The position numbers were made by a program, and so were the translations under genes. 64,000 nucleotides of DNA from an uncultured Syntrophorhabdus sp. (lineage in GTDB: Bacteria > Desulfobacterota > BSN033 > UBA1163): assembly GCA_964477935.1 (NCBI GenBank), contig CAYZFX010000011.1, positions 3,277 through 67,276 on the forward strand. Reading direction: 5' to 3'. The notes under the pieces were generated by a model. It did no database searches. It saw only the letters and a list, made by a program, of their open reading frames with translations, and had not been told where the DNA came from. Below, one piece after another: positions 1-41,812 of the stretch (its first letter is position 1; each line of letters starts with the position of its first letter).

Positions 1-373
1 GCTTATATAGAGCCCACATTACAGGAAAACGGCCAGGTGTATATGAAAAACAAGATTGTACCATATCGACGATACCTTGAGTCATTCCATCGTAAGCGTC
101 ACCCGGGCTGAGTAAACTTCCCACAGGGTAATATTTAATATCGAGTTTGTACTTCCCTCCTGTCGCTGCTTCTACCATTTTAAAATACCTTGGTAATTGT
201 TGTGCCGCAACGAAATGCGTGGCTGGAAAGATGAGGTTGACTCCCAGCGTCACTGTTTGTGGGCTTGCTTCTGATTTCGCCATCACGACCACTTTTCCAT
301 TCCTCTCTAGGCTGAGGGCCATCATACTCATCGTTAACAACACTATTGCCGAAATGATAAATAGCTTTTTCAT
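1..373 (-). CDS. dctP: TRAP transporter substrate-binding protein DctP (second copy), truncated by the window start; not in the ORF track
   Basis: Manual translation from ATG at 373 (SD AAGGAGG) is open to the window edge: MKKLFIISAIVLLTMSMMALSL...YYPVGSLLSPGDAYDGMTQGIVDMVQSCFSYTPGRFPV. It has a signal peptide, and the YPxGxL, YDG...G..D and YTPGRFP motifs are typical of DctP. Confidence 0.9.
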   Translation of the reverse strand, partial: MKKLFIISAIVLLTMSMMALSLERNGKVVVMAKSEASPQTVTLGVNLIFPATHFVAAQQLPRYFKMVEAATGGKYKLDIKYYPVGSLLSPGDAYDGMTQGIVDMVQSCFSYTPGRFPVMWALYK

Positions 374-502
374 CGTTCTCCCTCCTTAAGATCTAAAATG
401 AAGTGGTTATTTTGAAAAAAATTTTCTATCTCATCCATCACCTCCTTTTTACACAGAATCATGAAGAAGTATGTCCACTTGCCGTTAAGTATCCATTTAA
501 AG

Positions 503-2206
503 CTACTCACACCTGAAGCTTTCGGCTTTCTCTTTATCACCACCAACATACTTGGGAATTTTGGGCCAGGGGCAAAGAGGTCGTGTACGCTTTTTGTCCC
601 AGTTCTCAGGAAGCTCTTGATTCAAAGGATCAACTGAAGCAATGATTCTGTCAGGCGGTTGACCGGCTTCAACCCAGGTCATGAGGGCGCTAAGGGCATC
701 GAATTGATCGGTCGCAGGACCACCGCGGCAATGCCCCATCCCCGGAACAAGAAAAAGCCTCACAAAATCGGCCGCCTTTCCACCATAATTACCCGCCAAA
801 TTTTTATACCAATCGATGATGTCGTTGGTTGAAAATACCCCATCGCTCTGTCCGTGATAGATGATCATCTTCCCGCCTCTGGCCTTGAAACCTTCCAGTT
901 TCGGGTTTGAAACATCGGGTGGGGACATAAACTCCATCGGGGACTCTTTGAAGGTTTCGTTTTTTGCGAAGATCTTCGGAGCATCTTTGTCAAAGTCGAA
1001 CTTGGCTAAAAAATTCAATAAGGACACAGGATCTCCCGGAGTTTGGGTCGGCGGGACCGTAAAGATATACGAGAGTGAGCCTGCTCCCATCACCGCAATC
1101 ACCGGCATGCCACCCCAGGCCGGGATGCCGCTCTCAAGTTTCCAGAACCGCCAATTACCGGCCCCCATCCCCCCATCATAGGGCCAAGTGGAATAAAGCT
1201 GTTCGCCCCTCGAATTTTTCGGTCCACCCATAGAACAATCCAGTGCTCTCACCTGTTCTGCGCTCAGGCAATCTCTCTTTTTTTCACCCGGACATTTCAA
1301 ATCTGAAAGTTTAAAGATTTCCTGACACCGGCTCAAATCGGCAACCAGCCCGTCCTCAAGCCCATCCAGAGCATCACACTTCTCAATTACTTTTGAAGCT
1401 ACCAGCTGAAGATCCTCACGGGAGAATGATTTCCGGATGTCCGGGTTGGCGATCTGGAAACATTGAACATCCCAGGCATGTTGAACTGCGGCCTTGGGAA
1501 GTTGAAGACCTGGATTGCCAACCAGAATACCATCGTAATGTTCAGGGTATCGGGATGCGGCGACCAGGCCATGACGACCGCCATTGGAACAACCGAACAT
1601 ATAGGAAAATGAAGGCTCTCTCCCGTAAAAATCTTTGATGATTTTTTTGGCAACCGTCACCATGGTCCCAGTAGCGGCGTATCCATAGTCAGAACGGGCC
1701 TGCGGGTCAAGGCCAAAGGCATTGCCTTGGGCTAACCCAAAGCCGGCATTGGCCGGATCTCTTGCATCATGTCCTCCATCGGTACTCAATACAGCAAAAC
1801 CACGGGCCAGGGCTGTAATGTTATTCACAGCATTTAAATTTCTCGGGTCTCCCTCAGCCGGGACGATGATCCCCTCATTTCCCCCGTTCATCTGATGGAG
1901 AAACCGGCCGTTCCAGGCAAGGGGCAACCTCATTTCAAACCCGATGGCATAGGTCTTCCCATCGATCCCTACCCGTTCATTCACTTTGCCTCTGATCAGA
2001 TAATAAGCCGGATATCGAGCATCATTCGTAACTAGTTCTGCTTGGGTGATTCGGACGTTCTTTAAATTAAGGGTTTCCGTGGTGATCGGTGAATAGCGAA
2101 GTTTAGCCAGAGCGGAGGAGGGGTCGGCGAAAGCAGGAATTGAATGGAGTGTTAAGGAGAGCAAAGTAAAGAATAAGATCTTTCTAAGAATGGTCTTTTG
2201 GAACAT
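503..2206 (-). CDS. Secreted tannase/feruloyl-esterase family alpha/beta hydrolase (MHETase-like clade)
   Basis: N-terminal signal peptide; catalytic Ser in GCSNGG, Asp in HGQSD, His in GMGHC (the CS-D-HC disulfide motif of tannase/FAE); AFGLDPQAR, CDALDG and RTRPLCP segments resemble MHETase. Confidence 0.93.
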   Translation of the reverse strand: MFQKTILRKILFFTLLSLTLHSIPAFADPSSALAKLRYSPITTETLNLKNVRITQAELVTNDARYPAYYLIRGKVNERVGIDGKTYAIGFEMRLPLAWNGRFLHQMNGGNEGIIVPAEGDPRNLNAVNNITALARGFAVLSTDGGHDARDPANAGFGLAQGNAFGLDPQARSDYGYAATGTMVTVAKKIIKDFYGREPSFSYMFGCSNGGRHGLVAASRYPEHYDGILVGNPGLQLPKAAVQHAWDVQCFQIANPDIRKSFSREDLQLVASKVIEKCDALDGLEDGLVADLSRCQEIFKLSDLKCPGEKKRDCLSAEQVRALDCSMGGPKNSRGEQLYSTWPYDGGMGAGNWRFWKLESGIPAWGGMPVIAVMGAGSLSYIFTVPPTQTPGDPVSLLNFLAKFDFDKDAPKIFAKNETFKESPMEFMSPPDVSNPKLEGFKARGGKMIIYHGQSDGVFSTNDIIDWYKNLAGNYGGKAADFVRLFLVPGMGHCRGGPATDQFDALSALMTWVEAGQPPDRIIASVDPLNQELPENWDKKRTRPLCPWPKIPKYVGGDKEKAESFRCE

Positions 2207-2352
2207 AAATCTCTATCCTCCTTTCGGAACGTTTTTTCTCTTTTTAAGGAGTTTTTTAAAATGTTCATGTCCGGAGAAAAGAGAGGGGGAAAAGCAACTT
2301 GTTCGGGTTTGCTAAATGCCATTCGCTTTCTTTTTTAAAAAGAACGATACTT

Positions 2353-3654
2353 TTACTTAATCACTCCGGGTAAGAAGAGGGCGATCTGGGGAAAAGCCAC
2401 CAATAGGATGACGAAGGCCAAGATGGTCAGACAGAAGGGGAAGATCCCCTTGAAGATGGTCTCCATGGGCACATCCTTAGCCACTCCGGCAATGATATAA
2501 ACATTCATGCCGATGGGTGGGGTGATCATGGCCATCTCCACCAACAGGACGATCAGGATACCGAACCAGATGGGATCGAAGCCGAGGTTTTTGACCACGG
2601 GAAAGAAGATAGGCACGGTCAGGAGGACCATGGCCATGGTGTCGATGAAGCAGCCGAGGATGATGTAGAGCAGGATGATACAGCCCATCACCAGAACGGG
2701 ATGGATGCCGAGACCGACGATATAATTGGCCAGCTCCATGGGAATCGTGCTCACCGCGAAAAAAGGAATGAGGATGAAGGCCCCGAGGGCACAGAAAAAG
2801 ATCATGCCCGTCGTCTTCACCGCATCGGTCACACTATCCTTGATCCCCTGCCAGTTGATCTTCTTTCGGATGAGGGAAAGGACGAGAGCACCGAAGGCGG
2901 CCACCGCCCCGGCCTCGGTGGGGGTGAACCATCCGATGATCAGACCGCCGAGGACCAAAACGATCAGTACCAACATCTCTCCACATTCGGCGGCGGCACT
3001 CAATTTTTCCCTGAAGGTGGTGCTTTCTCCCCTCGGGGCGATCGATGGGTTGAAACGCACCCGACCGTAGACCATTCCCATGAACATGAGGCTGAGGATG
3101 ACTCCTGGAATGATCCCAGCCGTAAAGAGTTTGACGATCGAGGTTTCTGTCAGAATGCCGTAGATGATCAAAATCGTACTGGGGGGGATGAGGAAGCCCA
3201 GGGTTCCCCCTGCGGCAATACAACCGGTGGCCAGGCTGGTATCGTATTTATAACTTCTCATCGCTGGGATAGCAGAGGTGCCGATGGTTGCAGCGGTCGC
3301 AATGCTCGAGGCGCTCACCGCCGAGAAGATGCTACAGGCCCCCAAGGCCGCGATAGCCAGACCTCCGGGTAGTCGGCCGAAGATGCTATTTGCCAATCGG
3401 AAGAGGCTCTGTCCCAACCCTGCGCGGAAGAGGACCGTGCCCATGAGGAGGAAGAGGGGGAGCACCAGCCAGTCATAATTGGAGATGAGGCCGTAAGAGA
3501 CCGTTGCGAGGACATTGAAGGCCGCTTTGACCGTGGTGAGGTAGGCAAAACCCACGAAGCCCACCAGCATCATGGCTGCGCCGATAGGGACGCCCAAGAG
3601 CAAGAGCAGGAGAATGATGACGATGCCGAGGATACCGCAGAGAAACGGGCTCAT
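2353..3654 (-). CDS. dctM: TRAP transporter large permease
   Basis: 433-aa highly hydrophobic protein with LPLFLLMG, GGTLGFLIPPS, TPTEAGA and ITPPIGMN motifs. Confidence 0.96.
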   Translation of the reverse strand: MSPFLCGILGIVIILLLLLLGVPIGAAMMLVGFVGFAYLTTVKAAFNVLATVSYGLISNYDWLVLPLFLLMGTVLFRAGLGQSLFRLANSIFGRLPGGLAIAALGACSIFSAVSASSIATAATIGTSAIPAMRSYKYDTSLATGCIAAGGTLGFLIPPSTILIIYGILTETSIVKLFTAGIIPGVILSLMFMGMVYGRVRFNPSIAPRGESTTFREKLSAAAECGEMLVLIVLVLGGLIIGWFTPTEAGAVAAFGALVLSLIRKKINWQGIKDSVTDAVKTTGMIFFCALGAFILIPFFAVSTIPMELANYIVGLGIHPVLVMGCIILLYIILGCFIDTMAMVLLTVPIFFPVVKNLGFDPIWFGILIVLLVEMAMITPPIGMNVYIIAGVAKDVPMETIFKGIFPFCLTILAFVILLVAFPQIALFLPGVIK

Positions 3655-3661
3655 AATCTGT

Positions 3662-4153
3662 TTAGAGTCTCCTCCTATTCCATGTTTTTATCGTTCCGAC
3701 GAGATGTGAAATAAAATAACCCAGAAGGAGGGCACAACCGATGGCCAGGATCACCCGGAAAGGTGCCGCAGGGAGATGAAGGATGGGGGTTTTTGCCCCC
3801 CGTTTGATCATTGCATCGTAGGTATAGAGAAGCGCGCCCCATCCTAATAGGGCTACCGCCCCGATACTGATCAAAAGGGAGAGGACCGTAAAAAATGGCT
3901 GAATTCGGCCGGGCAATCGGTGGATTAATATCTCGATGATGATATGGGAGCGCTCCGCCTGGGTGTAGCTCAATGCGAAGGAGATCAAAAAGATTCCTGC
4001 CAGGCTGATGAGCTCGACGCCTCCATATAAGGGAGAACCGAAGAAGAGCCGGCCGATCACATGGACCACCGTGACGAGCATCATCGCGATGAGAGAGACG
4101 GAGGCGATGAAGAGGGGTATCTTTTTGAAGGTAAATCTGGGGGATGGTTCCAC
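3662..4153 (-). CDS. dctQ: TRAP transporter small permease
   Basis: 163 aa, four TM segments, HIIIEIL motif; lies between dctP and dctM. Confidence 0.92.
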   Translation of the reverse strand: MEPSPRFTFKKIPLFIASVSLIAMMLVTVVHVIGRLFFGSPLYGGVELISLAGIFLISFALSYTQAERSHIIIEILIHRLPGRIQPFFTVLSLLISIGAVALLGWGALLYTYDAMIKRGAKTPILHLPAAPFRVILAIGCALLLGYFISHLVGTIKTWNRRRL

Positions 4154-4184
4154 AGGTTGATCCTCGCTCGAAATCTCGATAAAA

Positions 4185-4235
4185 TCGGGTTCGCCTCGCT
4201 ATGAATTCAAATTCATCATAGTGAGACGAACCCGA
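4185..4235. terminator. Long stem-loop between dctP and dctQ (attenuator or mRNA-stabilising hairpin)
   Basis: Arms TCGGGTTCGCCTCGCTATGA (from 4185) and TCATAGTGAGACGAACCCGA (to 4235) are reverse complements with 2 mismatches; there is an inner ATGAAT-TCAA-ATTCAT stem. Confidence 0.7.
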
Positions 4236-4255
4236 CCAAGAGGAGGGGATTCGCC

Positions 4256-5260
4256 CTACTTTCGGATACTATTGATAAACTCCTGCACCTTGGTGGCAGG
4301 ATAACCCTTGGCGTCCAGGGCTAAAGCGTGTTTCCGGTTGCTCCCATCGACCTTTGCAAACCAGGCCGCCTCCTCAGCAGGAGCGAGTTTGATAAACTCC
4401 ACGCCCTGACCTTTGGCATAAGCCACGGCAGAGGCATCCGCCGCCTCAAAGGCCTTGATCGATTCGCTCCTTCCCCATTCGAGGCTGGCATCGATGATCT
4501 TCTGGAGATCCGGCGGAATCTTCTTCCAGCTGTCCCAGTTCATGACCATAAACCAGTTGCTGGAACAGTACATTCCGAATTCCGTGACATACTTGATGGG
4601 GATTTTGAAGGATTCGATGGCCTCTTTAAAGACCAGGCCCCCATGGACCGTTCCTTTCTGGATCCCGATGACCATGTCGGCACTGGTCATGCTGACCGGT
4701 GTTCCTCCCAATTCTCTAAGGGCATCGGAGGCTTCGGGGACAGGCGATCTCAGGGAGAGCCCCTTAAGGTCGGCCATCACCCGGACGGGTTTGGTGGTCG
4801 CAACCACGGCAGGCCCGGAGGCATGGGTCCATAAGACCTTTACGCTCTCCCATTCCTTTCGGAATTCAGGGAACCTTTTCCAAACTTCCATGGTGATCCG
4901 GGAGGCTGTGGTGGCATCCGGAAGTCCGGCCAGAAACATGGAGATCATCCCGGTCAACTCAGCGCCTGCCCGCGCATACCGGTAGCTGGCACCGATATCG
5001 GCGACTCCCTTTTCAATCCCCTCGTAGGTGACGAAGGGACCGATCAGGGTACCCCCCGGGAAGATCCGGAAGGTCAGTCTCCCCTTGCTCTCCTCCTCGA
5101 TCTTCTTAGCCCAGGCCGTGATCTGTTTGTCATACATCGATCCGGCGGGGGCCATGTGGCTGATCCGGAGTTCCATAGCTTTCACTGGTTTCTGGTAGAG
5201 GGTGGTGACTAAACCGATGATGAATAATACTGCCAAGAAAAACATTAAACTCTTTTTCAT
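4256..5260 (-). CDS. dctP: TRAP transporter substrate-binding protein
   Basis: Signal peptide, SHMAP, IFPGGTL, DLKGLSLR and LGGTPV motifs; SD AAGGAGG upstream. Confidence 0.95.
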   Translation of the reverse strand: MKKSLMFFLAVLFIIGLVTTLYQKPVKAMELRISHMAPAGSMYDKQITAWAKKIEEESKGRLTFRIFPGGTLIGPFVTYEGIEKGVADIGASYRYARAGAELTGMISMFLAGLPDATTASRITMEVWKRFPEFRKEWESVKVLWTHASGPAVVATTKPVRVMADLKGLSLRSPVPEASDALRELGGTPVSMTSADMVIGIQKGTVHGGLVFKEAIESFKIPIKYVTEFGMYCSSNWFMVMNWDSWKKIPPDLQKIIDASLEWGRSESIKAFEAADASAVAYAKGQGVEFIKLAPAEEAAWFAKVDGSNRKHALALDAKGYPATKVQEFINSIRK

Positions 5261-5417
5261 GCTTTACACCTCCTTAAAGATGAGTTGGTTAATGAATTTC
5301 CCCAGCCGATACCTGTTTGGATCTATCTTTTTCTCCAACCATCTTCTCTCACCATCACCCCCTTTAAGAAATCCTTGTTGCCCACCTATTCATTATTATA
5401 TACTCTTTCACAACCAA

Positions 5418-6959
5418 TCAAGATTCTTTCTCAATAGGGTTGACGGGCCACTCGCAGGATTTCTTTTCGAGAAATTGTTTTCTCAACTCCCTTTTTAATA
5501 TCTTCCCTGCCGGACTTTTAGGCATTTCCTGGACCAGGATGTATTCCTTAGGGACCTTGAAGGGAGAGAGCCTGGATTTAAGGAAAAGTTTTATTTCTTC
5601 TGTTGCAACCGTCTGCCCGGGTTTAGGGATGATAAAGGCGGTCACCCGCTCCCCCCATTCTTTATCGGGAAGTCCCACGACCGCGCACTCCTGGATTTCA
5701 GGTCGGGTGTAGAGCACCTCTTCCACCTCCCGGGGATAGACGTTCTCGCCTCCGGTGATGATCATGTCTTTAAGGCGATCTACGATATAAAGATATCCTT
5801 CCCCGTCGAAGAGGCCGATGTCCCCGGACCGAAGCCACCCACCTTCCCAAAAGGCGGCAAGATTCCCTTCGGGGTTGTTCAGGTATCCCTTCATCACGAT
5901 CGGTCCCCGGAAGCAGATCTCCCCTTCTTGGCCTTGCTCCAGGAGATGGCCTGAGGTGTCCCGGATCTGGACTTCGACTCCGTGGATGGGTTGTCCCACC
6001 GATCCGACCACATGCCTGTCGGGATAGTAGTGATTGTAGGTCACGGGCATGCCCTCGGTCATGCCATAAGATTCGCAGATTTTGATACCTGTCCGTTCTT
6101 TCCACTGTTTGACGATCTCTCGAGGCAGGGACGCTGCGGCAGAGAAACAGTATCGGAGTTTACCCAGCTTTTCACTCAGATCATTCACCCCAAGGAGCCG
6201 GACATAGACCGTGGGCACACCAAAGAATTTAGTAATCCGGCCAGCGGCCATCAGCTCCAGCGTTTTTCCCAAATCGAAGGAAGGGAGAATCTCCAGGCAT
6301 CCCGCGGAGAGGATCGTGGCGTTCATGATGTGGATCTGACCAAAGACGTGGTTGAAGGGCATAAAACATAAGGCCCGGTCGTTTTCAGTATTTCGCTCGA
6401 AGTGGGCGATGCTGAAACTGGAAAAATTGATCCCTTCATGGGTGAGCATGGCCCCTTTGGGGGTTCCGGTTGTCCCTCCCGTATAAAGGATGGCCGCTGT
6501 GTCGCTTCGCTCACGCTCGATGGCTTTAAAGTGAGGAGAGCCGGTTTCGATCAATCGAGGTAAAGAGATGTCCCCGTTAGGAGAGATTATCTTCTCCAAC
6601 CCGATTGAATCTTTTAATCGGAGAAGGTCATTCAATTTCTCATCGTATGTGTATAGGATCTTTGGCTTTGAATGTCCGACCAGGAGGGAAAGCTCATCGC
6701 CCCTCAGGAGACTCGAGTAGGTAATGGCCACCGCACCCGCTTTGAGGGCCCCGAAATAGAAGGCAATCCAATCCATTGAGTTCGGCGCCAGAAGGCCGAC
6801 GAAATCTCCCGGCTTTAGGCCCAGTTTAATCAGGGCTGTCGCAATCCTGTTCGATCTTTCGTTAAGCTGCTTGTAGGTTGTAACCTGGTCATTTTCACAA
6901 ACGGCGGGATGCTCGGGGAAGAAAAAGGCCGATTTTTCAAGATTAGAGGCAAGGTTCAT
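5418..6959 (-). CDS. Acyl/aryl-CoA ligase (AMP-binding, long-chain-fatty-acid-CoA ligase family)
   Basis: YTGGTTGTPKG, YGMTE, RSGDIG, DRLKDMIITGGENVYPREVE and PKSPAGKI motifs. Confidence 0.95.
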   Translation of the reverse strand: MNLASNLEKSAFFFPEHPAVCENDQVTTYKQLNERSNRIATALIKLGLKPGDFVGLLAPNSMDWIAFYFGALKAGAVAITYSSLLRGDELSLLVGHSKPKILYTYDEKLNDLLRLKDSIGLEKIISPNGDISLPRLIETGSPHFKAIERERSDTAAILYTGGTTGTPKGAMLTHEGINFSSFSIAHFERNTENDRALCFMPFNHVFGQIHIMNATILSAGCLEILPSFDLGKTLELMAAGRITKFFGVPTVYVRLLGVNDLSEKLGKLRYCFSAAASLPREIVKQWKERTGIKICESYGMTEGMPVTYNHYYPDRHVVGSVGQPIHGVEVQIRDTSGHLLEQGQEGEICFRGPIVMKGYLNNPEGNLAAFWEGGWLRSGDIGLFDGEGYLYIVDRLKDMIITGGENVYPREVEEVLYTRPEIQECAVVGLPDKEWGERVTAFIIPKPGQTVATEEIKLFLKSRLSPFKVPKEYILVQEMPKSPAGKILKRELRKQFLEKKSCEWPVNPIEKES

Positions 6960-7056
6960 TGATTTTATTCCCGGGTGGCGATGTTAAAAACATAACCATT
7001 TGATTTTAATAGTAAAATTTACAGATCCGCCTACCTTTTTCTTGTGGGTGGTCTAA

Positions 7057-7085
7057 TATTTATATGATTTTAAAATATTTGTCAA
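7057..7085 (-). promoter_or_regulatory. Candidate sigma70 promoter of the ligase-TRAP-esterase operon, in the divergent region shared with the regulator
   Basis: Minus-strand TTGACA (7085-7080) followed by AT-rich TATAAATA. A TGGTCTA FadR-type half site lies just downstream. Confidence 0.45.
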
Positions 7086-7129
7086 TATTCCTTTGCAAAA
7101 AAATCTTTTTTGTAGTAAGATTCCCAAAA

Positions 7130-7888
7130 ATGGTTGGTAAATTTAACCCGGTTAAACAGTTTAGGGTCTCCGAGGGAGTGATTAACCAGCTAAAACACTC
7201 CATCCTCCTTGGCCATTTTAAGGCGGGCGAAAGATTGCCCTCGGAGAGGGAACTTGCCGAAGAGTTCCGGGTCAGCCGGATGGCGATCCGGGAGGCCCTG
7301 AGAGCCCTTGAGCTCTCCGGATTCATAGAGACACGGCAGGGGATCAATGGCGGGGCCTTTGTAACGGATCTCACCTTTGAACATCTGGGCAATGCCTTCC
7401 TCGATCTCTTTTTAGCTGATAAGATCTCCATCCCCGAGATGTTACAGGTCAGACTCCTCATCGAGCCAGAGGTAGCCAGGCTTGCGACCTTGAACATTAA
7501 TCCCTCCTATACCCAGAGGTTGAAAGAAGCCCTTGAGCTTGAGGAACTCCCTCCGACCTCATTGATCCACGACGTCGAGATCAAACAGAACTTCCATTTT
7601 ATTCTGGCGGAGATGGCTGGCAATCGGTTCTTTGAAGCGATTGTCCGATCACTGTTAAAGTTGACCAAAAATCTGGTATTGGGAGTGGATGTGGGCCCTC
7701 GCTTTATCCATCCGGCAGGCATGCATCGAAAGGTGGCAGAGGCTGTTCTGTCCGGCAATCCGGGGGATGCTTATGAGGCGATGAGGAGGCATACCCTTGA
7801 GTTCGGAGAGAAACTGATCGAACTGGAAAAGGCCTACCGGCAAAAGAAAGCCCTTCTCTCTTATGAAGGGATGTTCCTCGATCGATAG
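7130..7888 (+). CDS. GntR/FadR-family transcriptional regulator
   Basis: wHTH RLPSERELAEEFRVSRMAIREAL plus FCD domain (FHFILAEMAGN, HRKVAEAV). Start moved to ATG 7130 (MVGKFNPVK). Divergent from the ligase operon. Confidence 0.93.
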   Translation: MVGKFNPVKQFRVSEGVINQLKHSILLGHFKAGERLPSERELAEEFRVSRMAIREALRALELSGFIETRQGINGGAFVTDLTFEHLGNAFLDLFLADKISIPEMLQVRLLIEPEVARLATLNINPSYTQRLKEALELEELPPTSLIHDVEIKQNFHFILAEMAGNRFFEAIVRSLLKLTKNLVLGVDVGPRFIHPAGMHRKVAEAVLSGNPGDAYEAMRRHTLEFGEKLIELEKAYRQKKALLSYEGMFLDR

Positions 7889-9614: not shown

Positions 9615-10787
9615 ATGCATAGAGAAAAGAAGACCCCCTTGCGAATGCCGAAGGAATGGAACGCCATAGAGAAACGTCTCGCCAAGGCCGAAAAAGCCCT
9701 GCTCGAGAGTGAGAGGAGATTTCAGGCCCTGATGGAAAACTCTCCCATAGGGATTCTGATTGTTCAGGAGGGTCAAATCGTTTACGAAAACCCTGTGGAA
9801 AAGAAGCTTTCCGGACCTCTGGCTCAGTTCTTTAGACATGGAAAATTAGAAAACATCCATCCGGATGATTTCGAAAAAGTGGAAAGGGAATTTCGGAAAA
9901 TCATCTCTGGGGAGGTCAAATCCCTCGAAATGGACTTTAGGTTTCATCGTAAAGAGAATGATGATTCCCCTCAGAACATGGTGTGGGTCCAATGCTGGGC
10001 AAGCTTCATCGAGTATTTAGGGAAAGAGGCCTTATTGGTCAGCAAACTGGACATTACCCGGGCCAAGGAGATGGAACATCTCTTGAGGATCGAAGATAAG
10101 ATGGCCTCGCTGGGACGTGTGGCCTCAGGCATTGCCCATGAGATCCGAAGCCCGCTTTCGGGGATCAACATCTTTTTGAATAATCTGGAAAAGGTCCTCG
10201 AGGAGCCCCAGGGTCAGGAGAAGGTCAAAGAGATTATCAGACAGATCCGGTCTGCCTCAAACAAAATCGAAGCCGTGATCCGTCGGGTCATGGATTTTGC
10301 CAAGCCCACTGAACCCAGATTTGTTCTGACGAACCTCCATCAACCCATCCAGGAGGCGATCGATCTTTCTGCCGTGACCTTACGAAGGAGCGGAATCTCA
10401 TTGCATCGATCCTTTGCTAAATCGTTACCCCCTTGTCAGGCAGACCCCCATCTCATCGGACAGGTGATTTTAAATTTGATCAGTAATGCAGCGGAGGCGA
10501 TGAAAGGTATGGAAGGAGACAGACACATTGAAATTGCGACAAGGGCGCGGGATGACCGGATCATCATCGGGATTTCGGATTCGGGCCCGGGCGTCCCTTT
10601 TCATCTTCGGAAGAAGATTTTTGACCCTTTTTTCACAACGAAGAACGGGAGCACGGGGATAGGGCTCAGCATCTGTCAGCGAATCGTTACCGATCACGGA
10701 GGTGAATTGAGCGTGTTGACCAGTAGATGGGGCGGGGCGGAATTCAGGATCGAGATCCCAATTAACAGAGAGAAAAAACAGGCATGA
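9615..10787 (+). CDS. Cytoplasmic PAS-domain sensor histidine kinase
   Basis: PAS (IHPDD), H-box AHEIRSPL, N/G1/F/G2 boxes (NLISNA, DSGPG, FDPFFTTK, GTGIGL); no TM segment. Confidence 0.95.
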   Translation: MHREKKTPLRMPKEWNAIEKRLAKAEKALLESERRFQALMENSPIGILIVQEGQIVYENPVEKKLSGPLAQFFRHGKLENIHPDDFEKVEREFRKIISGEVKSLEMDFRFHRKENDDSPQNMVWVQCWASFIEYLGKEALLVSKLDITRAKEMEHLLRIEDKMASLGRVASGIAHEIRSPLSGINIFLNNLEKVLEEPQGQEKVKEIIRQIRSASNKIEAVIRRVMDFAKPTEPRFVLTNLHQPIQEAIDLSAVTLRRSGISLHRSFAKSLPPCQADPHLIGQVILNLISNAAEAMKGMEGDRHIEIATRARDDRIIIGISDSGPGVPFHLRKKIFDPFFTTKNGSTGIGLSICQRIVTDHGGELSVLTSRWGGAEFRIEIPINREKKQA

Positions 10788-12172
10788 TCACCTATTCCAT
10801 CTATGTTCTGGACGACGAAGAGACCATAAGGGAAGGGATTACCATGGCCTTGGAGAAGGAATACAGGGTGAAGACCTTCTCCACGGCCAAGGCCGCCCTT
10901 GAGGCCATTCCAAAGGATCCCCCGGACTTGATCATCCTGGATATCGGCCTTCCCGATATGAATGGCATCGAGGCTCTCCGCAAAATCAAAGCCCTTCTTC
11001 CTGAAGTTCTGATCATCGTCGTCACCGCTTATGAAGATATTGACACTGTTGTCTCTGCGATGAAGCTGGGAGCGAGCGATTATGTGGTCAAGCCGATTCA
11101 TATGGAAGGCCTGACGATCACCATTCACAACGCCATCGAGACCATTCGTCTGAGAAAAGAGGTTCAGATCCTTCAGGAGAAATATCTTAAGGAAAACCTC
11201 CCCTGTTTTATCGGTGAAAGCAATGTGATTCACGACGTGATGGAATTTGTAGGGATGGTGGCCAGGAGTCCCGATACACCGATCCTCATTCTCGGTGAGA
11301 CGGGGACGGGGAAGGAGTTGGTTGCCAGCGCCATCCACTACCACAGCCCCAATTTTATGGGGCCTTTCATCACGGTTAACTGCGCGGCCATTCCAAAGGA
11401 GCTCATAGAGAGCGAACTCTTCGGGTATGAAAGGGGGGCGTTTACAGGGGCAAGCGTATCTGGCAAAAAGGGTTTGATCGAAGAAGCAGCCAATGGGACG
11501 CTGTTTCTTGATGAGGTGGGGGATTTGAGCCTCGAATCACAGGCGAAACTCCTCCGTTTTCTCGAAGCTGGAGAATTTTATAGAGTAGGTGGGACGAAGA
11601 AAATACAGGTTCGGGTTCGGGTGATCTCCGCCACCAATAAGAATCCTGAGACCCTGATCGAGACAGGCCAGTTCAGGAAAGACCTCTACTATCGGCTGGG
11701 GGTGATCAAAATTCAGATTCCGTCGTTAAACGAGCGTCGAGAAGACATCATCCCCTTGGCCAAATTTTTCCTGGTACGATTTAATAAGAAATTTGGAAAG
11801 AAGTTTACGGGCTTCACCCCACAAGCAGAGAGGGCCTTGGTGGATTACCACTGGGTTGGGAATGTGCGGGAATTGAAAAATATGATCGAGAGGGCTGTTT
11901 TAACCAGCAAGGGTCCGGAGCTGACGAAGAAGGACCTCGGAATAGAGGAACGGAGCCTTGCCGATGTCTCAAGCCAGTTCGACCCGAAGCAGGTTATTTC
12001 TCCCCTCCCTCCGGAAGGCATTGACCTTCCTGCTCTCCTGGAATCCATAGAGAGGAGGTATATCCAGGAGGCCCTTCAAATGGCTCAAAGGAACGAAAGC
12101 AGAGCGGCAAGATTGCTCCACCTGAACCACCATACATTTCGTTATCGGAAGAGAAGATTACAGATCAAATAG
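10784..12172 (+). CDS. sigma54-dependent response regulator (NtrC family)
   Basis: Receiver domain (DDE, D, K), GETGTGKE, GAFTGA, LFLDEVG, WVGNVREL, C-terminal HTH; ATGA overlap with the kinase gene. Confidence 0.96.
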   Translation: MITYSIYVLDDEETIREGITMALEKEYRVKTFSTAKAALEAIPKDPPDLIILDIGLPDMNGIEALRKIKALLPEVLIIVVTAYEDIDTVVSAMKLGASDYVVKPIHMEGLTITIHNAIETIRLRKEVQILQEKYLKENLPCFIGESNVIHDVMEFVGMVARSPDTPILILGETGTGKELVASAIHYHSPNFMGPFITVNCAAIPKELIESELFGYERGAFTGASVSGKKGLIEEAANGTLFLDEVGDLSLESQAKLLRFLEAGEFYRVGGTKKIQVRVRVISATNKNPETLIETGQFRKDLYYRLGVIKIQIPSLNERREDIIPLAKFFLVRFNKKFGKKFTGFTPQAERALVDYHWVGNVRELKNMIERAVLTSKGPELTKKDLGIEERSLADVSSQFDPKQVISPLPPEGIDLPALLESIERRYIQEALQMAQRNESRAARLLHLNHHTFRYRKRRLQIK

Positions 12173-12269
12173 ATTCGTCCCTTCCGACGGCCACCGGTTT
12201 CCGAGGTTCTCCTCGTCCTCCATCCTTTTCTTGTCCTCCCGTTTTGGGTTTTCCCCAAACCTATCCCCT

Positions 12270-12304
12270 AATTTCTAAAGTTTGCGAAGCAAAATTTAGA
12301 AATT
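12270..12304. promoter_or_regulatory. 35-bp palindrome, candidate enhancer (UAS) of the sigma54 promoter
   Basis: AATTTCTAAAGTTTGC-GAA-GCAAAATTTAGAAATT: 16-bp arms with 1 mismatch, about 90-125 bp upstream of the -24 element. A related half site lies at about 12374-12387. Confidence 0.55.
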
Positions 12305-12394
12305 TTTCAAAATCCTTCGAATCCCAAAACCCCATATAAAAATCAAAAGAAGGTAACTTTTTGAATCCCTTCAAATTTTCTAAATTTCAACTTT

Positions 12395-12410
12395 TGGCAT
12401 CTCCTTTGAA
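12395..12410 (+). promoter_or_regulatory. sigma54 (-24/-12) promoter, variant -12
   Basis: TGGCAT-CTCCT-TTGAA: GG-N10-GA (canonical is GG-N10-GC), 55 bp before the GAF gene. Confidence 0.65.
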
Positions 12411-12464
12411 TAAAGAAGGGTTAACGGATGGGAATTTAGACAACGAAAGGAGGGGCGATCGAGG

Positions 12465-13031
12465 ATGACCGCTGAAAAACCGGGTGGGTTCAATTTTTAT
12501 GACATGGTGAAAACCACCCCTTCCTCCTTAGGGGTCCGTGAGGTTATCGGGACCTTAGTCCGCAAGGTGAATCAGTTGATGAATGGGAAGGGATGTTCCC
12601 TCCATCTATTCGATCCCGAACGGAAGAGATGGGAATTGGTGGCTTCCCATGGATTAGGCGGTGATGATTTTGGAAAAGACCCTGTAGAGGCCGATCAGAG
12701 GATCGTAGAGACCTTGGTAGGGAACACGGTATGGGTCTCGGAGGCCACAAAATTTCCAGGCGTTCAATACGAAAAGGAGGCTGTGGGAGAAGGGAGATAT
12801 GGCGTCCTATCGGTTCCCCTTTCTGTTGAGGGACAGGTGGTGGGTATGCTGCGCCTCTATACCCCTGAGCCTCGAACTTTTTTGAAGGGAGAGATCGATT
12901 TTGCCGAGGCAATGGCTGAGATGGGAGCGAACATCCTCGAAAATATTAGAAGGTACGAAAGCCTTCGGAGAGATTATGAGTATGTGGTGAATGACATCTT
13001 CACCTTCTATGGATTCCGGCGGGGCATTTAG
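12465..13031 (+). CDS. Stand-alone GAF domain protein
   Basis: KGCSLHL, ASHGL, LSVPLSVEGQVVGMLRLY...F...EIDF GAF pattern; SD AAAGGAGG. Confidence 0.88.
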   Translation: MTAEKPGGFNFYDMVKTTPSSLGVREVIGTLVRKVNQLMNGKGCSLHLFDPERKRWELVASHGLGGDDFGKDPVEADQRIVETLVGNTVWVSEATKFPGVQYEKEAVGEGRYGVLSVPLSVEGQVVGMLRLYTPEPRTFLKGEIDFAEAMAEMGANILENIRRYESLRRDYEYVVNDIFTFYGFRRGI

Positions 13032-13049
13032 GTTGACCCGCAGCATTCA

Positions 13050-13670: not shown

Positions 13671-13684
13671 TCAAAGGAGGAACC

Positions 13685-13987
13685 ATGTCCCAACCGCTCA
13701 AGGGTTGGAGAGAGTTGCCCATGAGGGGCTTGATCGTCGAGCCCGGCAATTCCGTTGATTACGAGACAGGGAGCTGGAGGGCCCTTCGGCCTATCATCGG
13801 TTTAGAAAAATGCTCCCATTGTATGTTATGTTGGCTCTTTTGCCCGGATGCGAGCATCCGGGTAGAAAACTCCAAAGTGGTAGGCATAGACCTGAAGTAT
13901 TGTAAAGGGTGCGGCATCTGTCGGGAGGTATGTCGTCGCCAGGCGATCACAATGGTTGAAGAGACGAAGGGAAAGGAGGAGGTATAG
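13685..13987 (+). CDS. porD: 2-oxoacid:ferredoxin oxidoreductase delta subunit (2x[4Fe-4S])
   Basis: TGSWR..RP, CSHCMLCWLFCP and CKGCGICREVC motifs. Start set at ATG 13685 after AAGGAGG. Confidence 0.92.
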   Translation: MSQPLKGWRELPMRGLIVEPGNSVDYETGSWRALRPIIGLEKCSHCMLCWLFCPDASIRVENSKVVGIDLKYCKGCGICREVCRRQAITMVEETKGKEEV

Positions 13988-15187: not shown

Positions 15188-15203
15188 GAGAGGAAGGGGA
15201 ACC

Positions 15204-19265: not shown

Positions 19266-21554
19266 TCATTTGGTTCCATTCCCCTTCTTTTTCTCTTCGA
19301 TGGCTTTCAGAATCTTATCCGGCGTGATGGGAAACTCATGGAAGAAATAACCGACTGCATTCGAGATGGCCCCGCAGTATGCCTGAGCCGCGCTCATCGC
19401 CACGGACATCCCTGCCTCTTTGGCGCCGTAAGGCCCGTTGGGATCGATCGTCTCGACGATGATATCATTGATCTTCGGCATATCGATGGCGAGGGGGACC
19501 AGATAGCCGAGCTGGGTTGGGTTCAAGACCCTTCCTTCATGCCACTGGAGGAATTCCGTAAGCATTCCGCCCTGTCCTCCCATAGCCACCCCGCCTTCGA
19601 ACTGCCCCTCGATGACCTTCGGATTGAGGGCGTAGCCGACATCCTGGGAGGCGGTCACCTCCAGGACCTCCACCTGGCCCGTTTCGGGATCGACCTTGAC
19701 CTCGCAGATAACCGTGCCGAAGGAGAAGGTCTCCGAAAGCTGACCATAAGGGTTCTTGACCCACTCCCGCTTCCAATCCACTTTGGGCCAGTAAGAACCG
19801 GATCCGCTGATCGACTCATTCCGAGAGAGGGCCATCCGCACCGCCTTGTCAATACTGATTGACTGGTCAGGATTTTTGGTGACGAAGATCTTCCGGTTTC
19901 TTACGCTCAGTTCCTCCTCGGAGACGCCGAGCTCTTCGGCGACGATCCTGTAGAGTTTCTTCTTCACGTCCAGAGCGGCGAGGCGAACGGCATTTCCTCC
20001 GATGAACGTCTCGCACATTGAATAGGATCCCGGGTCGCTCGGGGTAACCTCTGTATCGGCGTTGATGAGCTGGATGTCATCCGGCGTAAGGCCCAGTTCT
20101 TCGGCCACGATCTGAACCACCATATGATCATTGCCCTGGCCGTTGTCCACGATTCCGGTGATCACGGTGGCCCCGCCGTCCTCGTTCAGTTTGATGAAGG
20201 CTTGGGAGCCTCCCCGGATGCCCATGGGAAAACCGGTCTGGACAGAGTTACACCCGATGCCGATGCCATGGTAAGGGGGTAATTTCCCGAACTTCTCGGA
20301 CCAACGGGCCTTCTCTGCCGAACGGAGGATCGTTTCCGTAAGACCACAGCTGGCTACATAGGAGCGGGTCGGCGTCATGTCCCCGGTCTGCCGGGCATTC
20401 CTCAGACGCATGGTCACGGGATCGATGCCCAGTTCTTCGCCGAGCCTATCGAGCTGGAGATCGACCCCGCAGGCGAAGGCCCTTCCATGGGTTCGGAACA
20501 TTCCTCGGATCGGTTTATTCGTGAGCACCCGGTAGCCATTGTAGCGGACGTTCTCCATACGGTAGGCCTGCTCCATGCAGAGAAAGGGGACCGACGTCGC
20601 GATGGGTCCGGTTGAACTGTAAGCCCCACCGTCCATGTAGCAGGTGATGTCCCGGGCGATCACTCTCCCTTCCCGGTCCACACCGGTCTTGATCCGGGTG
20701 ATCATCGAGTGGGCCTGTCGCGTGCAGACCGTATTCTCCTCGCGTGTATAGACAATCTTGACAGGTCTCTGGGATTTCTTCGCCAGCAAGGCGCAGATCA
20801 CGTCGGCGGGAGAGATTTCGGAGCGGCCTCCAAAGGCCCCTCCGATCGTAATCTTGCGGACCCTCACCTTATTGAGAGGCATTTTGAGGACGTTGGAAAG
20901 GGGTTTGGCCTTCAGATGGGGTCCTGCATTGGGCATCCAGATCTCGAGGTTTCCCGCATGGTCGAACTGGGCCACGACCGCATAGGGTTCTCCCTGGAAA
21001 TAGGAGTCCTCAGGGGCCGTGAAGGTATCCTCTCGGACAAGATAGGAGCTGGCAAAGCCTTTTTCGACATCGCCCACATTGATGTGGACGTGAATGTTGA
21101 TGTTGTTGGGGTAGATCTCGTGGAGCTGGGGCGCACCGGGCGCAAGGGCCTCCTCGATCGTGAAGACTGCGGGGAGCACCTCGTAGGTGACCTCGATGAG
21201 CGAGAGCGCCTCGAGGGCCGTATCTTCATCGATGGCCGCTACCGCAGCCACCTCTTCACCGACATAGCGGACCTTATCCGTCGGAAGGAACTGTTGATCC
21301 TGTGTATATTTAAACACCCCCCACTTCTCTCCGGTCGTGTCCTTGGCGGTGACGACCGCTTTGACCCCGGGGAGCTTTTCTGCCCTCGAGGTGTCGATCG
21401 ATATGATCCGTGCATGGGCGTGGGGGGACCTCAGGATCTTTCCCACCAGCATCCTCGGAAGGGAGAGGTCGGCCGTAAAGCGGGCCTCCCCTGTCGCCTT
21501 CGAGATGGTATCGATCCGCTTCATATCCTTGCCGATGTAAGAAAATTTTTCCAT
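19266..21554 (-). CDS. Xanthine-oxidase-family molybdopterin-binding subunit, HcrA-like, with a non-canonical active site
   Basis: ILRSPHAHARI, DKVRY.G..VAAVAA, GGAFGGRSE, DNGQG, ALNP..IEGQ and DPNGPYGAKE. Start set at ATG 21554 after GGAGG. Confidence 0.93.
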   Translation of the reverse strand: MEKFSYIGKDMKRIDTISKATGEARFTADLSLPRMLVGKILRSPHAHARIISIDTSRAEKLPGVKAVVTAKDTTGEKWGVFKYTQDQQFLPTDKVRYVGEEVAAVAAIDEDTALEALSLIEVTYEVLPAVFTIEEALAPGAPQLHEIYPNNINIHVHINVGDVEKGFASSYLVREDTFTAPEDSYFQGEPYAVVAQFDHAGNLEIWMPNAGPHLKAKPLSNVLKMPLNKVRVRKITIGGAFGGRSEISPADVICALLAKKSQRPVKIVYTREENTVCTRQAHSMITRIKTGVDREGRVIARDITCYMDGGAYSSTGPIATSVPFLCMEQAYRMENVRYNGYRVLTNKPIRGMFRTHGRAFACGVDLQLDRLGEELGIDPVTMRLRNARQTGDMTPTRSYVASCGLTETILRSAEKARWSEKFGKLPPYHGIGIGCNSVQTGFPMGIRGGSQAFIKLNEDGGATVITGIVDNGQGNDHMVVQIVAEELGLTPDDIQLINADTEVTPSDPGSYSMCETFIGGNAVRLAALDVKKKLYRIVAEELGVSEEELSVRNRKIFVTKNPDQSISIDKAVRMALSRNESISGSGSYWPKVDWKREWVKNPYGQLSETFSFGTVICEVKVDPETGQVEVLEVTASQDVGYALNPKVIEGQFEGGVAMGGQGGMLTEFLQWHEGRVLNPTQLGYLVPLAIDMPKINDIIVETIDPNGPYGAKEAGMSVAMSAAQAYCGAISNAVGYFFHEFPITPDKILKAIEEKKKGNGTK

Positions 21555-21652
21555 AACCTGCCTCCCCATGCCGAGCGGTTTCAGCCTACCCGATGGGCAC
21601 TAAACTTTTTCTCCCGTCCGCCTCTCTCTCCCTACACCTTTCGTGATGGATC

Positions 21653-22135
21653 TTACGAGACCGTCTCTCCGGCGAGAGACCGGATGGCCTCTACAATTTT
21701 GGCATAGCCGGTACATCGGCAGATGTTTCCGGAGATGGCCTGTCGGATCTCACGTTCGGTCGGGTTTGGGTTCTCTCTCAGAAGGGCGTAGGCGGTGAGG
21801 ATCATGCCGGGACTGCAAAAGCCGCACTGGATGGCATGGTGTTGGATGAAAGCCTCCTGAACAGGGTGGAGGCGATCTCCTTTCCTGAGCCCTTCGATCG
21901 TCGTAATCTCCATTTCCTGGACCGTGGCCGCGAGGGTGAGGCAGGACCTCACGGGGATTCCGTCAATGAGGACGGTACAGGACCCGCAGACTCCTTCCCC
22001 GCAACCCTCCTTCGTCCCTGTGAGATGGAGATCGTTTCGAAGGACGTCGAGGAGCGTCCGGTTGGGAGAGACGAGGAGGTCAAAGACTTCTCGATTGACC
22101 TTCAGGCGAATGGCTCTCTTCTTCATCTCCACCAT
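21653..22135 (-). CDS. 2x[2Fe-2S] subunit of the XO-family molybdoenzyme (HcrC/CoxS-like)
   Basis: GTKEGCGEGVCGSC, QCGFCSPG and NICRCTGY motifs. Confidence 0.96.
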   Translation of the reverse strand: MVEMKKRAIRLKVNREVFDLLVSPNRTLLDVLRNDLHLTGTKEGCGEGVCGSCTVLIDGIPVRSCLTLAATVQEMEITTIEGLRKGDRLHPVQEAFIQHHAIQCGFCSPGMILTAYALLRENPNPTEREIRQAISGNICRCTGYAKIVEAIRSLAGETVS

Positions 22136-22136
22136 G

Positions 22137-23111
22137 TCACGGTCTCCCTTCCATCCTTTCCATGGCCGCTTTCACGGCCCGTTTGGCCAGCACCCCTGCC
22201 ATCTTTCTCCTGTAGGGGCCCGGCATCTGGAGATTATCGATCGCTTCCGCGAGTTCGGAGGCCTTCTGGCCCAGGCTCTCCAGATCGATCTCTCCGGAGA
22301 GGTCATCGATGGGTCTTGGCCCCGCTCCAAAGGCCCCGAGGACGACCCGGCATCGTTCGATCCCTTCCTCCTCCAGGGTTGACACAAAGGCCGCTGCTGA
22401 GGCGATGGGGTAGTCGATGCTTCCCCGAAGGCGGAGTTTCTGGTAGGACGAACCGGACCTGCCTTCTGGATGGGGGAGGATGATCTTCGTGAGCAATTCA
22501 TCAGGTTCGAGGTTGAATGGGGTGATGCCATTGCCAGTAAAAAGGTCCTGCACGGGAATCGTTCGGTTCGAATCCTTCTTTTCGAGAAGACATCGGGCCT
22601 TGAAGGCGAAGAGGACGGGGGCCAAATCGCCCTGATAGACACTGAAACAACGTCTGCTTCCTTTGACTGCGAGGCAGGCATCTCCACCTCTTTTGTGGCA
22701 CCGTTCGAGCCCATCGAGAACCAATCGGGATTGGTTGTAATAGAGGCATCGGGTATTCTGGAGCAGGTTCCCGCCTATGGTCGCCATGTTGAGGATTGTG
22801 GGAGAAGCCACCTGATGGGCCGCTTCGGTGAGGGCTTGAAATTTCCGGGCGAGGAGAGGCGATCGGGCGATCGCTCTCAATCTGGTGTTGGCCCCGATGA
22901 TCGTCTCGCGCTCCCTCACTTCAATGCCTTCCAGCTCCTTAATCTTTCCAAGGCAGACCACGACTTCAGGCTCCATGAGCCCCAACCTCATCCGGTTCAA
23001 AAGGTCTGTTCCCCCTGCCATCACCTTGGCGGTCTCTTTCCGAGCGTGGAGAAGGGCGAGGATCTCTTCGAGGGTCTTGGGCTCAAGGAGTTGAAACGGT
23101 GGAAGTCTCAT
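22137..23111 (-). CDS. FAD-binding subunit with HcrB-type [4Fe-4S] insertion
   Basis: AGGTDL, ATIGGNL, and the RCLYYNQS...CHKRGGDAC...RC..YQGDLAP four-Cys insert. Start set at ATG 23111 (SD AGGAG) because a promoter overlaps the upstream ATG. Confidence 0.93.
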   Translation of the reverse strand: MRLPPFQLLEPKTLEEILALLHARKETAKVMAGGTDLLNRMRLGLMEPEVVVCLGKIKELEGIEVRERETIIGANTRLRAIARSPLLARKFQALTEAAHQVASPTILNMATIGGNLLQNTRCLYYNQSRLVLDGLERCHKRGGDACLAVKGSRRCFSVYQGDLAPVLFAFKARCLLEKKDSNRTIPVQDLFTGNGITPFNLEPDELLTKIILPHPEGRSGSSYQKLRLRGSIDYPIASAAAFVSTLEEEGIERCRVVLGAFGAGPRPIDDLSGEIDLESLGQKASELAEAIDNLQMPGPYRRKMAGVLAKRAVKAAMERMEGRP

Positions 23112-23144
23112 CGGTGTCTCCTGGGCGTGGGGCGGTTTCCTCAT

Positions 23145-40043: not shown

Positions 40044-40115
40044 ACCCATGATCGGCATCCTACCATAAAAAAGGCTATAATTAGAAAAATTGCCTTGTTT
40101 CGAGAGGAAGAACCC

Positions 40116-41765: not shown

Positions 41766-41812
41766 AGGGGTTCATCCTTCAAAGAATCTATGTTTAACAG
41801 GAGGGAATCGAC

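Follow-up and report, generated by a model that had tools for sequence, protein, structure and literature searches.

A tannase-family esterase beside two TRAP systems and an acyl-CoA ligase: a candidate uptake and activation island for ester-bound phenolic acids in an anaerobe-type deltaproteobacterium

Analysis of a 64,000-nucleotide stretch of DNA from an uncultured Syntrophorhabdus sp. (contig CAYZFX010000011.1, positions 3,277 to 67,276; the whole stretch is hereafter called the window) revealed a minus-strand series of genes that encodes, in order, an acyl-CoA ligase, the tripartite ATP-independent periplasmic (TRAP) transporter proteins DctP1, DctQ1 and DctM1, a secreted tannase-family esterase and a second binding protein, DctP2, with a GntR/FCD regulator diverging on the plus strand. 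With somewhat better than even confidence, we read this locus as a phenolic-acid uptake and activation island to which an ester-cleaving front end has been added in an anaerobe-type deltaproteobacterium, the substrates probably being hydroxycinnamate esters. In the proposed scheme, the Sec-exported serine esterase would cleave soluble aromatic esters in the periplasm, most likely hydroxycinnamoyl esters (feruloyl, p-coumaroyl, caffeoyl), and the released aromatic carboxylate or carboxylates would be caught by two distinct TarP-like binding proteins and imported via the DctQM pair belonging to each. The ligase encoded by the first gene would then turn the imported acid into its coenzyme A (CoA) thioester, which would enter an anaerobic aromatic route; a 4-hydroxybenzoyl-CoA reductase (4-HBCR)-like enzyme is encoded 12 kb away, and xanthine-dehydrogenase-family enzymes lie by the island in relatives. 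The divergent regulator would govern the ligase promoter. Every part comes from a known family, and the hydrolyse-import-activate layout also occurs in many aerobic Proteobacteria, where it is uncharacterised.

The layout rests on a six-frame list of open reading frames (ORFs) together with Pfam and NCBIfam profile scans, which bear out the gene order and the divergent regulator reported in an initial annotation of the same DNA. Identities below are percentages of protein sequence unless nucleotides are stated, and L-numbers denote metagenome, metagenome-assembled genome (MAG) and genome loci compared with the window. The features are as follows.

2..373 (listed as 373..2), minus: dctP2, N-terminal 124 codons, truncated at the window start (ORF list; identical contig L091)
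503..2206, minus: secreted tannase/feruloyl-esterase-family hydrolase, 567 amino acids (PF07519, E 1e-118)
2353..3654, minus: dctM1, TRAP large permease, 433 amino acids (PF06808, E 4e-96; TIGR00786, 334.8 bits against a cutoff of 268)
3662..4153, minus: dctQ1, TRAP small permease, 163 amino acids (PF04290, E 8e-22)
4185..4235, minus: strong RNA hairpin, then GAUUUUAU, in the dctP1-dctQ1 spacer (folding against shuffles)
4256..5260, minus: dctP1, TRAP binding protein of the predicted aromatic-acid (TarP-like) subfamily, 334 amino acids (PF03480)
5418..6959, minus: acyl-CoA ligase (ANL superfamily), 513 amino acids, leading gene of the series (PF00501 and PF13193)
7057..7085, minus: promoter-like block TTGACA...TATAAAT, 5' of the ligase (kept in five related loci)
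7130..7888 (ORF listed from 7064), plus: GntR regulator with an FCD domain, FadR subfamily (PF00392 and PF07729)
19266..23144, minus: 4-HBCR-like molybdenum (Mo) enzyme with three subunits, outside the main locus (beta 22137-23144, gamma 21653-22135, alpha 19266-21569)

Esterase active site, pocket and clade

The esterase matches PF07519, the family that ESTHER lists as Block X tannase, with 397.5 bits against a cutoff of 29.8, covering profile positions 11-489 of 490. Its closest solved structures are those of MHETase, the Ideonella sakaiensis hydrolase of mono(2-hydroxyethyl) terephthalate (MHET) (EC 3.1.1.102; PDB 6QGA, 6QZ3), with E-values of 1e-107 to 1e-109 and 43.5% identity, while the fungal FaeB-type structures are much further away (about 1e-30). 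The initial annotation had described a signal peptide and an intact CS-D-HC triad, and both hold. The N-terminus, MFQKTILRKILFFTLLSLTLHSIPAFA followed by DPSS, carries the features of a Sec signal peptide as read straight from the sequence (…IPAFA, then DPSS), and a periplasmic location appears likely. In the alignment with MHETase, C206-S207, D455 and H492-C493 fall on C224-S225, D492 and H528-C529, which points to an S207/D455/H492 triad with a Cys-Cys disulfide at the active site; D278, D281 and D285 occupy the positions of the lid Ca2+-site residues D304, D307 and D311, and the lid aligns without large gaps. An entry for the exact sequence was not present in the protein collection looked up.

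The two enzymes thus share PF07519, the large-lid fold class, the triad with its flanking Cys pair, the lid Ca2+ site and a secretion signal, as well as W397, S419, F424 and F495 of the MHETase pocket. They differ in the residues that confer MHET specificity: V369, M373, G374 and S377 of the window esterase stand at MHETase positions 411, 415, 416 and 419, and G108 at position 131, so that V, M, G and G take the place of R411, F415, S416 and S131. In MHETase, R411 binds and enforces the 4-carboxylate of the terephthalate moiety, and its exchange to A or Q all but kills MHET turnover, while F415 acts as an induced-fit gate and S416 and S419 hold R411 in position (PMC6461665); S131 affects the Km (PMC7568301). 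Because these four residues are replaced, terephthalate esters are unlikely substrates, and a para-carboxylate substrate would hardly suit the distal pocket, predicted to be hydrophobic and roomier. The window esterase also lacks the partner of the C51-C92 disulfide (Y69 at position 92), belongs to a separate and much larger clade, and adjoins TRAP systems and a CoA ligase, whereas MHETase stands in an aerobic terephthalate context. The locus, in short, most probably offers no plastic-monomer (MHET) enzyme. A report on a thermostable MHETase (PMC13292399) was set aside, as it concerns a different esterase family.

A protein search returned more than 6000 homologues, many of them at 55-85% identity. 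The earlier impression that this clade belongs mainly to aerobic Proteobacteria and fungi does not survive, as the homologues include proteins from Deltaproteobacteria, Desulfobacteraceae and Chloroflexota MAGs. Among the GTDB species genomes, the nearest esterases are found in Deltaproteobacteria MAGs (81% and 68%), with further hosts in the Chloroflexota, Magnetospirillaceae and Desulfobacteraceae; Burkholderiales proteins are numerous, those of Ideonella alba and I. aquatica reaching about 60%, and Rhodobacteraceae proteins stand at about 48%. A neighbour-joining tree combined with pocket signatures resolved three groups, namely an [L/I/V]-M-G-S clade that holds the window esterase, a Paraburkholderia/Variovorax clade in which position 411 is deleted, and MHETase itself with R-F-S-S. 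In this tree, the window esterase stands apart from MHETase. The [L/I/V]-M-G-S pocket is common to the entire clade at identities of at least 49%, including its Rhodobacteraceae and Burkholderiales members, and by sequence the clade is large, taxonomically broad and, as far as we found, uncharacterised. The literature search likewise found no paper on a tannase-family esterase in anaerobic aromatic degradation.

The active-site Cys pair varies among the homologues. In the PET (polyethylene terephthalate)-degrading strain Piscinibacter/Ideonella sakaiensis 201-F6 (L059, about 10001-11728), a second paralogue of the tannase family shares 44-49% identity with the window esterase and has neither cysteine (GSSNGG and GHS instead of GCS and HC), and the pair is also missing from many Rhodobacteraceae homologues.

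Two TRAP systems, the acyl-CoA ligase and esterase neighbourhoods elsewhere

The initial annotation had two binding proteins sharing one DctQM pair, an idea that proved wrong because, on a contig running past the window edge, DctP2 is followed by a DctQ2 and a DctM2 of its own. Metagenome contigs were scanned with the DctP2 fragment, which led to FMSI01052862.1 (L091), the first 1897 nucleotides of which are 100% identical to window positions 1897..1. Beyond the edge, the contig encodes the complete DctP2 (364 amino acids), then DctQ2 (166 amino acids), DctM2 (433 amino acids) and the start of a DUF169-like gene; the same dctP2-Q2-M2-DUF169 order is found in L092. The locus holds two complete and divergent TRAP systems, each with P, Q and M encoded together (system 2 on L091), DctP1 and DctP2 being 24% identical and DctM1 and DctM2 49%.

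Sequence searches with DctP1 and DctP2 match one small set of structures. For DctP1, we built an AlphaFold (AF2) model from a 40-sequence alignment (pLDDT, the predicted local distance difference test, 94.4) and searched the PDB with Foldseek, and the top 27 matches all belonged to the TRAP binding-protein cluster that holds TarP. These neighbours comprise TarP_Sse, TarP_Csal and TarP_Rhp with coumarate, cinnamate, ferulate, caffeate or 4-hydroxyphenylacetate, a marine metagenome binding protein "specific for aromatic acid ligands", and Dde_0634, Desal_3247, Rfer_2570 and a Bordetella protein; the members whose entry titles name a ligand are the TarP proteins and the marine aromatic-acid binder. 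Full-length DctP2 has its best PDB match in TarP_Sse (7nr2, E 6.6e-37). Taken together, sequence and predicted fold place both proteins in the TarP-like aromatic-acid subfamily, and aromatic-acid ligands are predicted for them. The arginine of the K(I/L)R motif is present in both (LSLRSP in DctP1, LKIRST in DctP2); in TRAP binding proteins this residue serves carboxylate binding (PMC11668362, and general knowledge).

The closest subfamily by sequence and predicted fold is that of TarPQM and its orthologues from Rhodopseudomonas palustris, Sagittula stellata and Chromohalobacter salexigens (PDB 7NQG, 7NR2, 7NSW), which take up lignin-derived hydroxycinnamates and are tripartite, with P, Q and M, like both window systems. 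R. palustris TarPQM serves an anaerobic, CoA-dependent degradation of coumarate (PMC3610893). The window locus differs from it in carrying two divergent systems side by side and in having no adjacent couA-type hydratase/lyase gene.

For the ligase, the sequence allows placement in the ANL superfamily and no assignment of a substrate. The NCBIfam model that fits it best, the catch-all PRK06187, gives 435.7 bits against a cutoff of 476, and the benzoate/4-hydroxybenzoate-CoA ligase model TIGR02262 (cutoff 375) was not among the 25 best models, all of which scored at least 253 bits. Among its solved relatives, the malonyl-CoA synthetase MatB came first (3e-87 to 1e-83), followed by feruloyl-CoA synthetase 8wev (2e-79), FadD13 and oxalate ligases, then 4-coumarate ligases (about 1e-67) and benzoate and 4-chlorobenzoate ligases (about 1e-57).

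Gene neighbourhoods of the esterase in other genomes bear on the likely substrate. Across 80 genome loci, a DctM gene lies within 10 kb of the esterase homologue in 13 and an acyl-CoA ligase gene in about 25. The esterase-adjacent binding proteins are 56% (L038), 50% (L011, L013) or 39-40% (L029, L031, L040) identical to TarP_Sse, the Sagittula stellata protein that was crystallised with coumarate and cinnamate according to its PDB entry titles. In Donghicola (L040), the order is SDR (short-chain dehydrogenase/reductase), enoyl-CoA hydratase, DctPQM, AMP-ligase, Amidohydro_2, esterase and acyl-CoA dehydrogenase, a layout whose gene families indicate CoA-dependent side-chain degradation. It is mainly by such guilt by association with TarP-type and side-chain genes that we prefer hydroxycinnamoyl esters as the substrates of the clade.

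These aerobic Rhodobacteraceae and Burkholderiaceae clusters (for instance Donghicola L040, Roseobacter L038, L011/L013) have an esterase of the same clade with the same pocket beside a TRAP system; an acyl-CoA ligase also stands beside the esterase in L029 and L040, giving the hydrolyse-import-activate layout of the window. They differ in that the ligase is of another type (604 amino acids, 24% identical to the window ligase), that many of their esterases have no active-site disulfide, and that they carry enoyl-CoA hydratase, SDR and acyl-CoA dehydrogenase genes, which the window locus does not; these clusters are uncharacterised as well.

Relatives of the island, expression signals and anaerobic context

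Several metagenome and MAG loci repeat the unit of GntR regulator, first ligase (ligase1) and DctP1Q1M1, with proteins that are 87-92% identical to those of the window. The esterase accompanies ligase1 and TRAP1, in changed order, in three relatives (L001/L003, L004 and L086/L006). After GntR and ligase1, the gene orders are as follows.

L004: TRAP1, tannase paralogue, esterase orthologue (87%), second ligase, Fer2, MoCo, and an FAD subunit fused to a GltD-like NAD(P)H module
L001/L003: begins as L004; the genes past the esterase are reduced to short fragments, including an 89-amino-acid DctM2 remnant
L086/L006: esterase, DctPQM, TctBA, Amidohydro_2, TctC, second ligase (end of the locus); HAD-PAP2-GntR flank as in the window
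L094: TRAP1, second ligase, IclR, xanthine-dehydrogenase-family enzyme; neither esterase nor TRAP2

The second ligase is present in L004, L094 and L086, and a complete Mo enzyme of the xanthine-dehydrogenase family comes after it in L004 and L094. From this synteny, the ligase-TRAP island seems to be the conserved part, with the esterase or esterases and TRAP2 as accessory insertions. The esterase that the initial annotation saw embedded in an operon, and for which it proposed a synteny check, is therefore kept in three related loci, rearranged, and missing from the closest one: the ligase-TRAP1 core is what recurs, and the esterase is no fixed member of it.

Several observations were made on these relatives in their own right. 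The xanthine-dehydrogenase-family enzyme of L004 (13544-18701) and L094 (15494-20719) has an FAD subunit of 785-798 amino acids with an inserted GltD-like Fer4_20/Pyr_redox_2 NAD(P)H module. The enzyme is a different family member from that of the window: its alpha subunit shows 31-33% identity to the HcrA-like alpha subunit there and scores about equally with the 4-HBCR and XdhA models. By its sequence, it may represent an undescribed type of aryl-CoA (de)hydroxylase. To our knowledge, the xanthine-dehydrogenase-family enzymes that act on CoA thioesters all use (hetero)aromatic acyl-CoAs (4-hydroxybenzoyl-CoA reductase, furoyl-CoA dehydrogenase). This enzyme and the [L/I/V]-M-G-S esterase clade are, in our view, the most interesting loose ends of the analysis.

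Downstream of the esterase orthologue in L001 (11960-16256) and L002 (3373-7669), the second TRAP system, the second ligase and the Mo-enzyme genes persist only as fragments (the 89-amino-acid C-terminus of DctM2 and pieces of AMP-binding_C, Fer2_2, MoCoBD_1 and CO_deh_flav_C), and the island appears to be decaying in this lineage. In L086 (15253-19531), a Lake-Tanganyika-type relative, it extends into genes for a tripartite tricarboxylate transporter (TctBAC) and an Amidohydro_2 protein; the esterase homologue of Donghicola L040 has an Amidohydro_2 gene as its neighbour as well. In L095 (8261-14842), a DUF169 gene is followed by a ligase1 homologue (62%), DctPQM (DctP 69%) and a gene of the aromatic-amino-acid-lyase family. 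The latter was considered as a tyrosine/phenylalanine ammonia-lyase link to coumarate and rejected on account of its Ser-His motif (LMSHAAGVG), which we take to be typical of histidine ammonia-lyases.

The regulator combines an N-terminal GntR helix-turn-helix (PF00392, E 7e-19) with a C-terminal FCD domain (PF07729, E 4e-17), and its score against the E. coli FadR equivalog TIGR02812 is 31 bits, below the cutoff of 249. A block some 40 nucleotides long, 5' of ligase1, is kept in five loci; in the window, at minus-strand positions 7085..7058, it contains TTGACA and TATAAAT in perfect form. As this conserved promoter-like block sits within the listed regulator ORF (from 7064), overlapping its first 22 codons, the regulator probably starts at Met23, at 7130; the divergent GntR/FCD regulator probably controls the ligase promoter.

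Further along the series, the dctP1-dctQ1 spacer (102 nucleotides) folds with -43.5 kcal/mol (z -4.7), none of 200 shuffles folding as well, and a short U-run follows the hairpin. Stem-loops downstream of binding-protein genes are common, and the hairpin is a candidate intercistronic stabiliser or partial terminator that may attenuate downstream expression. The dctQ1 stop and the dctM1 start are 7 nucleotides apart, and strong Shine-Dalgarno sequences precede dctP1, the esterase gene and dctP2; one transcript for the whole series is plausible. In the related loci, no promoter or operator is conserved 5' of the esterase gene, where the ribosome-binding site alone is kept, and a scan for consensus promoters and terminators stayed at or under the shuffle expectation and was uninformative.

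The anaerobic side of the scheme is represented in the window by the 4-HBCR-like operon. Its alpha subunit (767 amino acids) matches Thauera 4-hydroxybenzoyl-CoA reductase (1rm6_A) over the full length with an E-value of 3e-138. TIGR03194 is the best model for alpha (642.6 against a cutoff of 994.6) and TIGR03195 for beta (335 amino acids; 217.5 against 404.6), while TIGR03193 is third best for gamma (160 amino acids; 175.5 against 257.8). The operon shares with the Thauera aromatica enzyme (PDB 1RM6) the three-subunit Mo/FAD/Fe-S make-up, and differs from it in that all three subunits stay below the NCBIfam equivalog cutoffs; it lies 12 kb from the island as a separate transcription unit. Saccharopine-dehydrogenase-like and class-III aminotransferase genes flank the beta-gamma-alpha series. 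Elsewhere in the window, there are genes for a 2-oxoacid:ferredoxin oxidoreductase (13050-16274), an electron-transfer flavoprotein subunit and radical-SAM proteins; together with the 4-HBCR-like operon and the deltaproteobacterial nearest relatives, they make the premise of an anaerobe reasonable. The hydrolyse-import-activate path proposed initially fits the aromatic-type DctPs, the kept synteny and this operon; its (tere)phthalate part is not supported, given the replaced pocket residues of the esterase.

Weighing of explanations and remaining genes

Several results weigh against a single hydroxycinnamate-ester pathway at this locus. The literature yielded no measured activity for any enzyme of the [L/I/V]-M-G-S clade. 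The identity of DctP1 and DctP2 to TarP is about 24-30%, which speaks for subfamily membership and not for orthology. The ligase groups with catch-all fatty-acyl/malonyl/feruloyl-CoA synthetases and with no defined aromatic-acid ligase family. Among the roughly 40 window ORFs scanned, there are no enoyl-CoA hydratase/lyase or beta-oxidation genes, and the steps from a C6-C3 acid to 4-hydroxybenzoyl-CoA have no local genes. L094 is the closest ligase-TRAP1 locus (DctP1 92%, ligase 91%), yet it is without the esterase, and esterase homologues at 76% and 68% stand alone (L087, L089), so that the functional link between esterase and island must be regarded as optional. The strong hairpin 3' of dctP1 and the esterase-flanking spacers (146 and 129 nucleotides, the latter between the esterase gene and dctP2) count against the view of one transcript.

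The missing side-chain-shortening genes would suit another acid, namely a hydroxybenzoate (4-hydroxybenzoate, protocatechuate or gallate) freed from parabens, tannins, depsides or lignin p-hydroxybenzoate esters, which the ligase would convert to an aroyl-CoA for direct dehydroxylation by the 4-HBCR-like enzyme. That operon itself, the ligase and xanthine-dehydrogenase-family enzyme directly after the island in L004 and L094, the marine aromatic-acid-specific binding protein among the neighbours of the DctP1 model and the gallate-ester hydrolases within the tannase family (PF07519 family description) are all consistent with such a route. We nevertheless consider it unlikely, given that TIGR02262 is absent from the top models of the ligase, that benzoate ligase structures score under feruloyl-CoA synthetase, and that same-pocket esterases in aerobes adjoin TarP orthologues and enoyl-CoA hydratase or acyl-CoA dehydrogenase genes. 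It is also quite unlikely, in our judgement, that the genes share no pathway at all, with ligase1-TRAP1 being self-contained for a free acid, aromatic or not, and the esterase and TRAP2 being independent inserts for unrelated substrates. The esterase-free L094, the solitary esterases of L087 and L089, the missing conserved promoter 5' of the esterase gene and malonyl-CoA synthetase as the best solved relative of the ligase would fit this, as would L092, which has TRAP2 and DUF169 without an esterase match on a contig with only 569 nucleotides 5' of dctP2. Against it stand the retention of the esterase beside ligase1-TRAP1 in three lineages despite reordering, the TRAP systems or acyl-CoA ligases that adjoin esterase homologues in many unrelated Proteobacteria, and the aromatic-acid type of both DctPs, which fits the acids freed by this esterase family. 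Finally, an MHETase-like or phthalate-monoester hydrolase, with the locus serving anaerobic terephthalate or phthalate ester use, would agree with MHETase structures as top matches and with the conserved W397, F495, S419 and F424. It is very improbable in view of the V, M, G and G that replace R411, F415, S416 and S131, of an identity of 43.5% to MHETase as against the 73-81% of MHET-active homologues (PMC7568301), and of the scanned window ORFs and related loci, in which no UbiD/UbiX-type decarboxylase or tph genes were found.

Should the hydroxycinnamate-ester reading be correct, a secreted tannase-family enzyme would give strict anaerobes of anoxic waters and sediments access to plant phenolics held in ester linkage, which they could free and consume; examples are feruloyl and coumaroyl esters, esters of the chlorogenate type, and lignin acylations. 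The products would pass straight into the benzoyl-CoA route. The usual view assigns the release of plant phenolics from esters to aerobes, or to fermenters that use esterases of other families. In addition, the locus would provide candidate enzymes through which a very large bacterial clade within the MHETase family could be characterised. A broader and tentative proposal, which we think somewhat unlikely, is that this anaerobic deltaproteobacterial lineage uses tannase-family esterases as interchangeable periplasmic front ends on a ligase-TRAP island that feeds Mo aryl-CoA reductases. If true, an anaerobic route for phenolic esters of plants or lignin would for the first time open with a tannase-family enzyme, and the xanthine-dehydrogenase-family enzyme with the GltD-like fusion would represent a novel type of aryl-CoA (de)hydroxylase.

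Other genes of the window were noted in passing. The plus-strand region 9615-16274 encodes a sensor histidine kinase, a response regulator of sigma-54 type (both by sequence appearance), a GAF protein and the gamma, alpha and beta genes of the oxidoreductase. At 40095-45720 (plus), a second AMP-forming ligase of 556 amino acids, with acetate-CoA ligase and MbcS-like models scoring best, is followed by a Peripla_BP_6 binding protein and apparent ABC permease and ATPase genes; a similar set with TetR and Peripla_BP_6 follows the L004 island. Two adjacent and very large AsmA/DUF748 proteins (1431 and 524 amino acids), unrelated to the locus, are encoded at 52775-58654 on the minus strand.

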